From NCBI RefSeq assembly GCF_013365435.1, contig NZ_CP046577.1:600001-632000 (forward strand): a stretch of 32,000 nucleotides of DNA. Reading direction: 5' to 3'. Position numbers and translations under genes: made by a program. Positions 28,039 through 29,104 of the stretch are shown piece after piece (position 1 is the stretch's first letter; each line of letters starts with the position of its first letter). The DNA is from Wolbachia endosymbiont of Litomosoides sigmodontis (GTDB taxonomy: Bacteria; Pseudomonadota; Alphaproteobacteria; Rickettsiales; Anaplasmataceae). Under the pieces are notes generated by a model. The model made no database searches. It was not told the origin of the DNA and was given only the letters and a program-made list of their open reading frames with translations.

Positions 28039-28066
28039 TGACCAGTATGTGTTTTAACATATAATT
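28039..28066 (+). promoter_or_regulatory. Candidate sigma70-type promoter for the 28103 ORF
   Basis: TTGACC (28039-28044), a 16-nt spacer, then TATAAT (28061-28066), about 37 nt upstream of the ATG. A consensus AGGAGG lies at 28089-28094, 8 nt before the ATG. TATAAT alone is weak evidence in AT-rich DNA, but the -35 element and spacing add weight. Confidence 0.4.
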
Positions 28067-28102
28067 AAATTTTTATCAACTTTAATATAGGAGGAAGTTA
28101 CT

Positions 28103-28753
28103 ATGACTGCAGGACTAAACATATGGAAAAAGGAAAACATAGCACCTATAATAAAAATGAGTATTGAAGGTACAGTTGCACTTACATCTTTAGCGGCAAC
28201 AATAACAACAATATTAGTTGCTACTAGTGTAGTTGTTGGACCTGCATTTTTAGTGTCTGTTGCTAGCCCTGTTGGAATTGCAGTTCTATTCATTGTAGCT
28301 ATATATTTTGCTGCAAAAGCTTATTCTTCATATCAGCAAATGTATAGAAATGAAGAAGCCGAAAAAGCAGTTAAACAAGCTGTAGCTAATGCAAAAATAG
28401 CAGATCAAGTTACTCAAGCTATAAATAATGCTGTAGCTAGTGCTAATATAGCAAATCAAGTCACTCAGGCCGTAAATAAAATTAATATAGCAAGTCAAGC
28501 TGAAATAGCAGCTCAAAAAGTAGTTGAAGAAAAAACTAGAGATTTAGCTACTAAAACTGAGCTAGGTAAAAAGGCTGATGCAGCTGTACTAGCTACAAAA
28601 GTTGATAAGAATTACGTTGACGCTGAATTGAATACAAAAATTAATTCATGTGACCTTCAAAAAAAAGTTAAAGAAGTGTTACCCACCCTCTTACAAGACC
28701 CTGAAGTTATTGAAATATTTGAAAGTAAGCTTCAAGCAAAAACAGGCGCATAA
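28103..28753 (+). CDS. Hypothetical membrane protein: double transmembrane hairpin plus repeat-containing coiled-coil domain
   Basis: 216-aa ORF with a strong SD. Two hydrophobic helices (about residues 24-45 and 48-71) are separated by Gly-Pro. They are followed by about 140 aa of sequence rich in A, K, Q and E, containing 17-aa tandem units. I recognise no family. The antisense ORFs in the track are low-complexity mirror frames. Confidence 0.75.
   Translation: MTAGLNIWKKENIAPIIKMSIEGTVALTSLAATITTILVATSVVVGPAFLVSVASPVGIAVLFIVAIYFAAKAYSSYQQMYRNEEAEKAVKQAVANAKIADQVTQAINNAVASANIANQVTQAVNKINIASQAEIAAQKVVEEKTRDLATKTELGKKADAAVLATKVDKNYVDAELNTKINSCDLQKKVKEVLPTLLQDPEVIEIFESKLQAKTGA
28379..28519 (+). 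repeat. In-frame 51-nt tandem repeat (2 full units plus 1 partial) inside the 28103 ORF
   Basis: The unit at 28379-28429 is gctgtagctaatgcaaaaatagcagatcaagttactcaagctataaataat. The unit at 28430-28480 is gctgtagctagtgctaatatagcaaatcaagtcactcaggccgtaaataaa. A partial unit follows at 28481-28519. They encode AVANAKIADQVTQAINN / AVASANIANQVTQAVNK / INIASQAEIAAQK. Confidence 0.85.
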
Positions 28754-29104
28754 GTTAAATGGAATCAGGAGGTGGAGTAGGGTACTCTTCTCCATCTCTT
28801 TTTTTTTCCACCTCAACATGCAAAGTTCACAGTAGCTTATTCCAAATTTCAACTATATCTTTATCTAATGTTCACGCTTAAAGCATTAGATACTTTTTTT
28901 ACAACATAAGCTAATTTTATGTTTAAATAAAGTTTTTGACCAGATCGCAGAAAGTCTAGACTTCAGCTTCACATTGCTGGGTGCAGTTTATTATACCGCA
29001 ATCCATTCGTGGTATTTCTCAATATCACTAACAAAAAGAATCATCTATAGTTATTACCTATTTTCTGTATTGATATTTTCCAAATCTTAAATCCCGCAAT
29101 TGTA

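Follow-up and report, generated by a model that had tools for sequence, protein, structure and literature searches.

What kind of protein is made from the short gene that stands beside the decayed truB of a supergroup-D Wolbachia, and which side of which membrane would it face? The gene lies in a stretch of 32,000 nucleotides (nt) of the Wolbachia endosymbiont of Litomosoides sigmodontis (contig NZ_CP046577.1, positions 600,001 to 632,000), here called the window, to whose first letter all coordinates refer. Its coding sequence (28103..28753, + strand) runs from an ATG start through 216 amino acids (aa) to a stop codon, and this open reading frame (ORF) matches the sequence quoted in an initial reading made from the letters alone, the sequence-only reading. 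That reading took the protein for an orphan resembling the chlamydial inclusion-membrane (Inc) proteins. Our analysis places it in a genus-wide family with a conserved hairpin anchor and an exchangeable C-terminus. The explanation of the whole that we tentatively put forward, from sequence comparison, is a membrane-anchored, probably trimeric, tethering fibre, weakly favoured as being exposed at the interface with the host.

A family of hairpin-anchored Wolbachia proteins

Homology searches with the window protein recovered 22 relatives, of which the 20 that carry a name all belong to Wolbachia or to termite-gut 'Rickettsiales' metagenome-assembled genomes (MAGs). The top ones are the wLbra protein (84% identity) and the wWb/wBm/wBp cluster (80%). 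With the group-A relative P0033 as query, 70 more were found, including proteins of wPip (C1A_400) and wAlbB (WP_259245448, annotated 'collagen-like protein'), and in both searches the named relatives all came from Wolbachia or were Wolbachia-type sequences filed under the name of a host or under another label. A profile of the anchor matched only 36 proteins among 1.84 billion representatives (50% clustering). The wLbra protein P0001 was the closest relative (5e-40 against the profile), and the distant matches looked up by name were once more Wolbachia in 10 of 10 cases (group A, group E, Ca. W. massiliensis, wFol, wCfeT, wCfeJ and others). Altogether, more than 100 members were retrieved, from supergroups A-F, J, S and T, from wFol and from the wCfe strains. 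Judged from these sequences, the family is undescribed, is confined to the genus Wolbachia and occurs in every lineage examined. The label of an orphan can thus not be kept, as the N-terminal 87 aa define a family of the entire genus.

The sequence-only reading had recognised no known family, and we agree: Pfam, NCBIfam, PHROGs, PADLOC and the PDB sequences gave the window protein noise-level matches only, and neither Pfam nor NCBIfam has a model for the family. Matches to VpsD, MSC_0882, SepX/GlpR, LeoBC and a short-chain dehydrogenase were at this noise level and were discarded. No exact copy of the window protein was present in a collection of 15 billion proteins. A prophage or phage origin was ruled out, as neither tblastn against 50,697 phage records nor IMG/VR gave a copy and all loci lie amid core genes. 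Some members are deposited under other labels, namely P0044 (Glossina austeni), P0080 and P0088 (Trichonephila spiders) and P0076 and P0078 ('Rickettsia endosymbiont of Ceutorhynchus assimilis'); presumably these are Wolbachia insertions in host genomes, contamination or the result of mis-binning.

The first 87 residues are conserved among the relatives with a mean column identity of 71%, and the remainder of the protein is unalignable between lineages. Twelve residues of this anchor are invariant: I21 and E22 in the head, S29, L30, P47, G58, L62, Y68 and F69 in the hairpin, and S76, Y77 and Q79 in the collar. The window protein carries all 12 within the signature IEG...SLAAAITT...GP...NPVGIAALF...YF...SSYQQM and is 37-88% identical to 22 members (alignment A1). 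The conserved N-terminal head (aa 1-23, 28103..28171, + strand; alignments A1 and A2) has the family consensus SIWKWxNTAxITKMGIEG, in which K18, I21 and E22 are invariant or nearly so. It leads into one unbroken hydrophobic stretch, residues ~21-77, with G46-P47 at its centre (Kyte-Doolittle, 19-residue windows >1.6). By the hydropathy scan this stretch forms a bilobed hairpin (28172..28315, + strand), made up of a first transmembrane (TM) segment, TM1 (aa 24-45, 28172-28237), a Gly-Pro turn (aa 46-47, 28238-28243) and a second, TM2 (aa 48-71, 28244-28315). The hairpin with a central Gly-Pro is thus as the sequence-only reading had described it, and so is the overall architecture, in which a helical C-terminus with repeats comes after a single bilobed hydrophobic hairpin. 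A juxtamembrane motif, or collar (aa 72-87, KAYSSYQQMYRNEEAE, 28316..28363, + strand; family consensus SSYQQMxKNEE), completes the anchor; besides its three invariant positions, Q78 is nearly invariant in the family alignment.

A two-helix anchor of this kind could also be read as a holin-like pore, in which the hairpins would oligomerise and open the membrane by a lesion or channel in the manner of class II holins or Holin-X, and the C-terminus would set the timing. A coiled-coil tail regulates timing in some mycobacteriophage holins. Ten of 22 anchors give sub-threshold matches to PF07332 (Phage_holin_3_6; best E = 1.6e-4, P0030 0.0093), the model of the putative, actinobacterial, two-TM Holin-X, whose hairpin is of similar length, and the TM helices of the Wolbachia family are rich in small residues with conserved polar positions. 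All of these matches, however, fall below the gathering score (28.4 bits), and the same anchors match the unrelated hydrophobic families DUF726, DUF2721 and MauE, as is typical of a composition effect; we therefore treat the PF07332 matches as such an effect. The precomputed Pfam annotation gives no member a holin domain, and the window protein itself has no PF07332 match. Neither an endolysin, a lysis cassette nor other phage context accompanies the gene, phage collections hold no copy, and long fibrous or globular C-termini, with collagen or globular parts of 60-330 residues, are not holin-like. We consider a pore very improbable.

Exchangeable stalks and a shared tail

A census of about 110 members resolved the family into three parts, the conserved N-terminal anchor, a variable stalk and, in the helical and collagen types, a tail of ~33 residues. 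The stalks are of several kinds: A/K/Q/E-rich helical repeats as in the window, KADK repeats, Gly-X-Y runs of 4-21 triplets, or a short Gly-X-Y segment joined to a globular domain of ~135 residues. Their length varies between about 40 and more than 300 residues, and the globular variant has no long stalk. The tail motif, (K)VKxxLP[TS]LLx[DN]PxVxxxFxxK[FY]xxK, occurs after helical, KADK and collagen stalks alike and in several supergroups. At the position beside truB, the C-terminal module is a helical stalk with tail in supergroup D, a short Gly-X-Y segment with globular domain in supergroups C and J, a collagen stalk in wStri (B), a short coil with tail in wCon (B) and a second globular variant in wStur. 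This comparison indicates that the C-terminal module is replaced repeatedly while the anchor is kept.

The collagen-type relatives are named collagen-like proteins by NCBI. The Pfam collagen domain PF01391 is precomputed for P0034 and P0120, which have 17 and 21 Gly-X-Y triplets, and P0044 (9 triplets) and P0116 match it below the gathering score. Among PHROGs, P0044 matches a collagen-type tail fibre (9e-9), P0058 a fibritin neck whisker (2.7e-9) and P0030 a tail fibre (2e-7); by their sequence these are best taken as resemblances at the level of the repeats. The globular domain of P0033 is predicted well (residues 111-220, 10-residue block means of the predicted local distance difference test, pLDDT, mostly 77-93), and its model matched nothing at E<=0.001 in the PDB or BFVD libraries. 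The collagen triple helix is an obligate trimer. Since the collagen stalks directly follow the conserved anchor and collar, the anchor must be compatible with trimerisation, and by analogy with its collagen-bearing relatives the window protein is probably a trimer as well.

In the window protein itself, the most abundant amino acids of residues 73-216 (144 aa) are A (25), K (17), V (14), Q (12) and E (12). The helical repeats (residues 93-135, 28372..28507, + strand) comprise a 51-nt (17-aa) unit repeated 2.1 times and a degenerate half unit that ends at 28507. Tandem Repeats Finder gives the 17-aa pair (28372-28479, residues 93-126) a score of 144 with 82% matches, in agreement with the 17-aa tandem units of the sequence-only reading. 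The coiled-coil-like C-terminus that it saw is also supported, by a hydrophobic periodicity of 3.35-3.4 residues (17/5) whose power lies above that of 98.6% of shuffles and is reached by 1.4% of them. An amphipathic helix or coiled coil is thus plausible for this stalk.

Further along lies a K-x-D/E-L or KADK-like segment (aa 149-179, ATKTELGKKADAAVLATKVDKNYVDAELNTK, 28547..28639, + strand). Its likeness to fibre repeats shows in paralogues with more KADK-like copies, of which P0030 gives the tail-fibre match cited above, but the window protein lacks a PHROG match. The conserved C-terminal tail (aa 184-216, DLQKKVKEVLPTLLQDPEVIEIFESKLQAKTGA, 28652..28750, + strand) carries the motif common to several stalk types and is one of the two best-scoring stretches in the AlphaFold2 model, with 10-residue block means of pLDDT 54-64.

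In the mechanism that we propose, the basic head, the two small-residue-rich TM helices, the Gly-Pro turn and the SSYQQM-x-KNEE collar would insert as a hairpin whose two ends share one side of the membrane, and the anchor would oligomerise. A trimeric anchor would most simply be a six-helix bundle of three hairpins, packed via the conserved small and polar residues. The lineage-specific stalk would serve as a rigid spacer of varying length and chemistry, in the window ~95 residues of amphipathic helix with 17-residue repeats and the KADK-like segment. It would hold the 33-residue tail (...VLPTLLQDPEVIEIFESKLQAKTGA) off the membrane, where the tail may bind a partner or nucleate trimerisation. 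We infer that such a fibre acts as a tether. A hairpin-anchored trimeric tether of this architecture appears likely, be it host-exposed, facing the bacterial cytoplasm or periplasmic.

Membrane, topology and possible exposure of the proposed fibre

Both flanks of the hairpin carry Lys with a weak net charge (+1 each), and the 2-residue loop is uncharged. By the positive-inside rule, both termini are therefore expected on the side from which the protein is inserted. The hydrophobicity of the two helices was estimated crudely, with Hessa-scale values independent of position, so that the following numbers are rough: in windows of 12-17 residues TM1 reaches -0.5 and TM2 -2.6 kcal/mol (family medians -0.8 and -1.5). 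Sums over 19 residues give +0.5 and -0.1; they overlap those of bona fide Wolbachia inner-membrane proteins (-3.6 to +2.8) and so do not tell a secreted protein from a resident one. A 2026 review places recognition by the signal recognition particle (SRP) at -2 to -1 kcal/mol and segments skipped by SRP near +1 (PMC12981334). With TM2 at or beyond the SRP range, entry into the Wolbachia inner membrane is the most likely first step for the protein.

One alternative is that it stays there, as a resident inner-membrane tether with both termini inside, whose stalk and tail would hold a cytoskeletal, nucleoid, ribosomal or divisome partner in the manner of the anchor, linker and head of ZipA or EzrA. 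This is consistent with a TM2 hydrophobic enough for SRP targeting (criteria of PMC12981334) and with the charge pattern that puts both termini inside. The protein has no signal peptide and no clear secretion signal, the locus is conserved amid housekeeping genes and kept in the most reduced genomes, and a highly conserved anchor would be expected for a conserved bacterial partner. The likeness to ZipA and TolA comprises a membrane anchor, a variable low-complexity linker and a conserved C-terminal element; these two proteins, however, have a single TM helix, occur across many genera in housekeeping roles and show no homology to the Wolbachia family. Replacement of the whole C-terminal module between supergroups at one locus is unexpected for a housekeeping protein, as is the confinement to one genus, and the ratio of nonsynonymous to synonymous substitution rates (dN/dS) is 3-5 times that of the neighbouring genes. 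Moreover, the characterised prokaryotic collagen-like or phage-fibre-like proteins that we know of are found at the surface, as secreted products or in virions, and not in the cytoplasm. A cytoplasm-facing tether thus seems rather unlikely to us. Were the protein to remain in that membrane, it would represent a collagen or coiled-coil fibre tethered there and turned towards the cytoplasm of the bacterium, of which we know no characterised example.

The weak charges of the flanks make the predicted topology less than strong, and with both termini outside the protein could instead be a periplasmic envelope strut on the model of TolA or Lpp, whose fibre would span or fill the periplasm and connect the inner membrane with the outer membrane or with what remains of the cell wall. 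Collagen-like and fibre repeats would fit an extracytoplasmic location, and the A/K/E-rich helical region behind the anchor resembles TolA domain II. Stalks of ~40 to more than 300 residues, together with a globular variant that has no long stalk, misfit a periplasm of fixed width, however, and the loop has no positive charge that would keep it cytoplasmic. No TolA or TonB domain was matched in Pfam, and none of the loci examined is linked to tol-pal. We regard a periplasmic strut as improbable.

Host exposure is weakly favoured because collagen-, fibritin- and tail-fibre-like stalks and the swapping of C-termini are typical of exposed proteins; the restriction to one genus, the module swapping and the collagen and phage-fibre-like stalks together point weakly in that direction. 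Wolbachia has a type IV secretion system (T4SS) of the VirB/D4 type. On the route that we envisage, the protein would enter the Wolbachia inner membrane first and would later be extracted and delivered to the host-derived vacuole membrane. Membrane effectors secreted by T4SS typically have 1-2 TM segments, short loops and both termini inside, and a two-step route has been proposed for the more hydrophobic ones, with insertion into the inner membrane followed by extraction (PMC12981334). The window protein resembles the T4SS transmembrane effectors listed for Legionella, Coxiella, Brucella and Rickettsia in its two TM segments, its 2-residue loop and its termini predicted to lie inside, and its segment in the SRP range would be compatible with this two-step route (PMC12981334). 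It differs from them in that it shows no homology to any listed effector and has no T4SS genes nearby in the loci examined.

The comparison with chlamydial Incs (e.g. IncA) rests on a single bilobed hydrophobic domain of about 50 residues with a minimal loop, on termini predicted to lie on the same side, on a helical or coiled-coil C-terminus and on an intravacuolar organism. A bilobed domain of about 40-60 or more residues, by which Incs are recognised, is present in the window protein. No Inc family, however, was among its Pfam matches even at E<=10, and there was no significant or above-cut-off match in NCBIfam or the PDB sequences. Incs are secreted by the type III route, directed by an N-terminal signal, and to our knowledge Wolbachia has no type III secretion system (T3SS). 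The hydrophobic domain of Incs is unconserved between paralogues, whereas the Wolbachia family conserves its anchor and swaps the C-terminus; collagen-like stalks, as far as we know, are not a recognised Inc feature. Membership in the chlamydial Inc families was excluded, given the missing homology and the lack of a T3SS.

The collagen-like and other trimeric fibres (streptococcal Scl1/2, Bacillus BclA, phage tail fibres, T4 fibritin) share with the family its Gly-X-Y, fibritin-like and KADK stalks, and a short conserved C-terminal element that could nucleate trimerisation. In contrast to them, the family is anchored by an N-terminal hairpin and not by a sorting signal, an exosporium basal layer or a baseplate adaptor; it is not phage-encoded, and its window member is helical and without Gly-X-Y. 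By analogy of architecture, chlamydial Incs and T4SS transmembrane effectors are the closest functional analogues that we can name.

Several points weigh against a host-exposed trimeric fibre. From the sequence, the protein would by default end up in the bacterial inner membrane and its fibre in the cytoplasm of the bacterium. The family tails hold no convincing C-terminal charge signal of the VirB/D4 type: the last 10 residues have a net charge >= +1 in 70% of 70 distinct family tails vs 52% of 81 background ORFs (p=0.013, for sequences that are not independent), the last 20 residues of the tails show no positive-charge enrichment, and the last 18 residues of the window protein have a net charge of about -2 by hand count. 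That even the most reduced genomes keep the gene would agree with a housekeeping role in the envelope as well. The trimer is argued from the relatives only; the window protein itself has no Gly-X-Y repeats (Pfam and census) and no PHROG match at E<=0.01. Its AlphaFold2 model, built from an input of 23 sequences, is helix throughout at pLDDT 45 and thus unusable. The literature searched makes no mention of the family, of wOo_07860 or of any Inc-like Wolbachia protein. UniProtKB lacks the wBm gene, so that the first annotation of wBm and early omics work probably missed it; the annotation of CP034333 does include the ORF, as EJB10_02100. In supplements to the O. volvulus study, the accession of the wOv protein did not turn up.

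With these points taken into account, we place a host-exposed location with an Inc-like outcome between unlikely and possible. Its most specific form, a trimeric fibre that is extracted, sits with its hairpin in the host-derived vacuole membrane and, with stalk and tail in the host cytosol, tethers the symbiont compartment to a host structure such as the endoplasmic reticulum, microtubules or motors, appears unlikely as a whole. The conserved anchor, the conserved promoter core and ribosome-binding site, and an exchanged, exposed-looking fibre make the protein a candidate for holding or positioning the symbiont compartment. If it were indeed a vacuole-membrane fibre, it would be a non-chlamydial, T3SS-independent analogue of Incs and the first genus-wide structural component of the interface between Wolbachia and its host, and the swapping of C-termini would track host shifts. 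We know of very few Wolbachia proteins at the host-cell boundary, and of none that is genus-wide and kept in the tiny genomes of filarial Wolbachia. The latter are drug targets for river blindness and elephantiasis.

Expression, constraint and genomic setting

The gene is preceded by a sigma-70-like promoter (28038..28065, + strand) that agrees with the consensus at 11 of 12 positions, with the -35 element TTGACC at 28038-28043, a 16-nt spacer and the -10 element TATAAT at 28060-28065. A Shine-Dalgarno (SD) sequence, AGGAGG (28089..28094, + strand), precedes the ATG by 8 nt. For 11 syntenic loci (supergroups D, C, J, B and others), the 150 nt nearest to truB were compared in an alignment (A3). 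The -35 core CTTGA is invariant in 11 of 11 loci and CTTGAC is found in 10 of them; the -10 region is largely conserved as a TATAnAnT-like sequence, and a purine-rich, GGAG-like SD occupies the same position in all loci except that of wCfeF (10/11). Intergenic DNA farther upstream of the promoter is rich in insertions and deletions in the same alignment. Downstream, an intrinsic terminator was predicted by RNA folding (28767..28808, + strand), consisting of a hairpin with 11-bp arms (28767-28800) and a T-run. The hairpin folds at -21.8 kcal/mol (z = -3.3), and no shuffle folds as well; in wLbra and wBm, a GC-rich inverted repeat followed by T/C-rich sequence was read by eye at the same place.

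These signals had been called the strongest in the window. A better promoter match, 12 of 12, runs from 1575 to 1548 on the - strand and outranks the one described here, equal 11/12 matches are found at 846, 3719 and 29140, and promoter-like matches in the whole window show no enrichment over shuffles. AGGAGG, called rare in the sequence-only reading, occurs 7 times in the window vs 5.3 expected by chance; the copy at 28089-28094 is, from reading the ORF tables, the sole one placed correctly before an ORF start. As evidence of expression, the footprint conserved across supergroups is much better than the consensus match itself, and it suggests that the gene is probably well expressed. The 12/12 sigma-70 match (1548-1575, - strand), the best promoter of the window, has an extended -10 TG and lies upstream of an rpoZ-like ORF (1094-1522).

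The frame is intact in five supergroup-D genomes (the window, wBm, wBp, wWb and wLbra). Within supergroup D, the dN/dS of the gene is 0.30-0.57, compared with 0.12 for pnp and 0.05-0.09 for rpsO; it exceeds that of its neighbours severalfold, as stated above, yet stays below 1. The gene is under purifying selection and evolves faster than its neighbours.

A chance or decaying ORF, kept only by its position beside truB, would find some accord in the pseudogene next to it, in the repeat-filled region downstream and in a dN/dS of 1.27 for the anchor, a value from one pairwise comparison with just 4 synonymous differences. It conflicts with a frame that is intact across supergroups, with the 12 invariant anchor residues, with the overall dN/dS, and with the conserved promoter core and SD and the terminator. 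Furthermore, the sole length difference among three supergroup-D orthologues compared is an in-frame 9-aa insertion or deletion in wLbra, within the K-x-D/E-L segment. On the sequences compared, conservation effectively refutes decay, which we regard as hardly credible.

The DNA comes from a supergroup-D Wolbachia, which lives inside vacuoles of its host. It is close to the Wolbachia of Litomosoides brasiliensis (wLbra) and of Brugia malayi (wBm) and identical to neither: the identity with their proteins is 92-94% for pnp and 92-96% for pnp and rpsO taken together. The intravacuolar lifestyle that the sequence-only reading deduced from the gene content is thus supported. The rest of the window is housekeeping (mutL, glmU-like, pheS, L25, pth, rnc, mtaB-like, aldolase, clpA). 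The gene stands divergent from truB-rpsO-pnp in supergroups D (wLbra, wBm), C (wOo, wDimm) and J (wDcau), and the same truB-divergent position is found in B (wCon, wStri), wCfeF, wStur and a termite MAG. Genomes of 0.86-1.08 Mb retain it, even where truB decayed. By synteny, the gene is a positional orthologue at truB-rpsO-pnp, which does away with the accessory context once ascribed to it.

The neighbouring truB is dead, as the same reading stated, with at least 5 frame-broken pieces at 27116-27959 (- strand). It is fragmented in wLbra (L001) and wBm (L021) as well and intact in wOo, wStur and wCfeF, so that this tRNA pseudouridine-55 synthase appears to have been lost across supergroup D. 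The insertion sequence (IS) debris described on the other side is repeat-derived DNA, as far as that goes, and no transposase remnant was detected there: the small ORFs downstream of the gene matched no transposase family in Pfam. Downstream similarity to wBm stops near 29034, and a degenerate repeat begins at 29099. This dispersed repeat (67-92% identity, pieces of 50-740 nt) occupies most of the larger intergenic gaps of the window, with copies at ~5386-5932, 8485-9023, 10776-11694, 13474-14119, 15890-17132, 19353-19856, 23642-24299, 29099-29544 and 30337-31422, and is also present in the wLbra locus L001. Since its small ORFs downstream of the gene match nothing in Pfam, it resembles a family of non-coding repeats and not recognisable IS remnants.

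A second, older paralogue of the family has a 'VPESL' insertion in the loop and lies beside ribD; some genomes have an intact copy, and in wStur, MAG C61_2 and wMoz it is broken. In genomes with two paralogues, one copy is beside truB and the other beside ribD (pairs L014+L016 and L007+L012). A block of ribD, HD, FeS, ABC, peptidase S15 and aminotransferase genes beside the family gene is inverted between supergroup B (L002, L015) and supergroups C, D and J (L008, L010, L011, L021), and the paralogues may be the endpoints of this inversion. In the window and in wLbra, the six-gene block is no longer adjacent, and pepA is found instead.

Two further features of the window were recorded. An intact ORF of 514 aa (14273-15817, - strand) is the only one in the window with a secretin domain (PF00263, 3e-19) and scores best as MshL/PilQ-like, its top NCBIfam match, to MshL (9.5e-45), falling far short of the cut-off. 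The window holds no further genes for pili or for type II/III secretion nearby, which makes the ORF a solitary outer-membrane secretin in a genome that is considered to depend on T4SS, the type I secretion system and Sec. Finally, two small adjacent ORFs at 29717-30123 (- strand) give faint baseplate-hub matches (PF09931, Phage_phiJL001_Gp84_N, 5.5e-4; PF09356, Phage_BR0599, 0.018) and may be a remnant of genes like those of a gene transfer agent or prophage, beside tRNA-Ser(gga) at 29589-29677.

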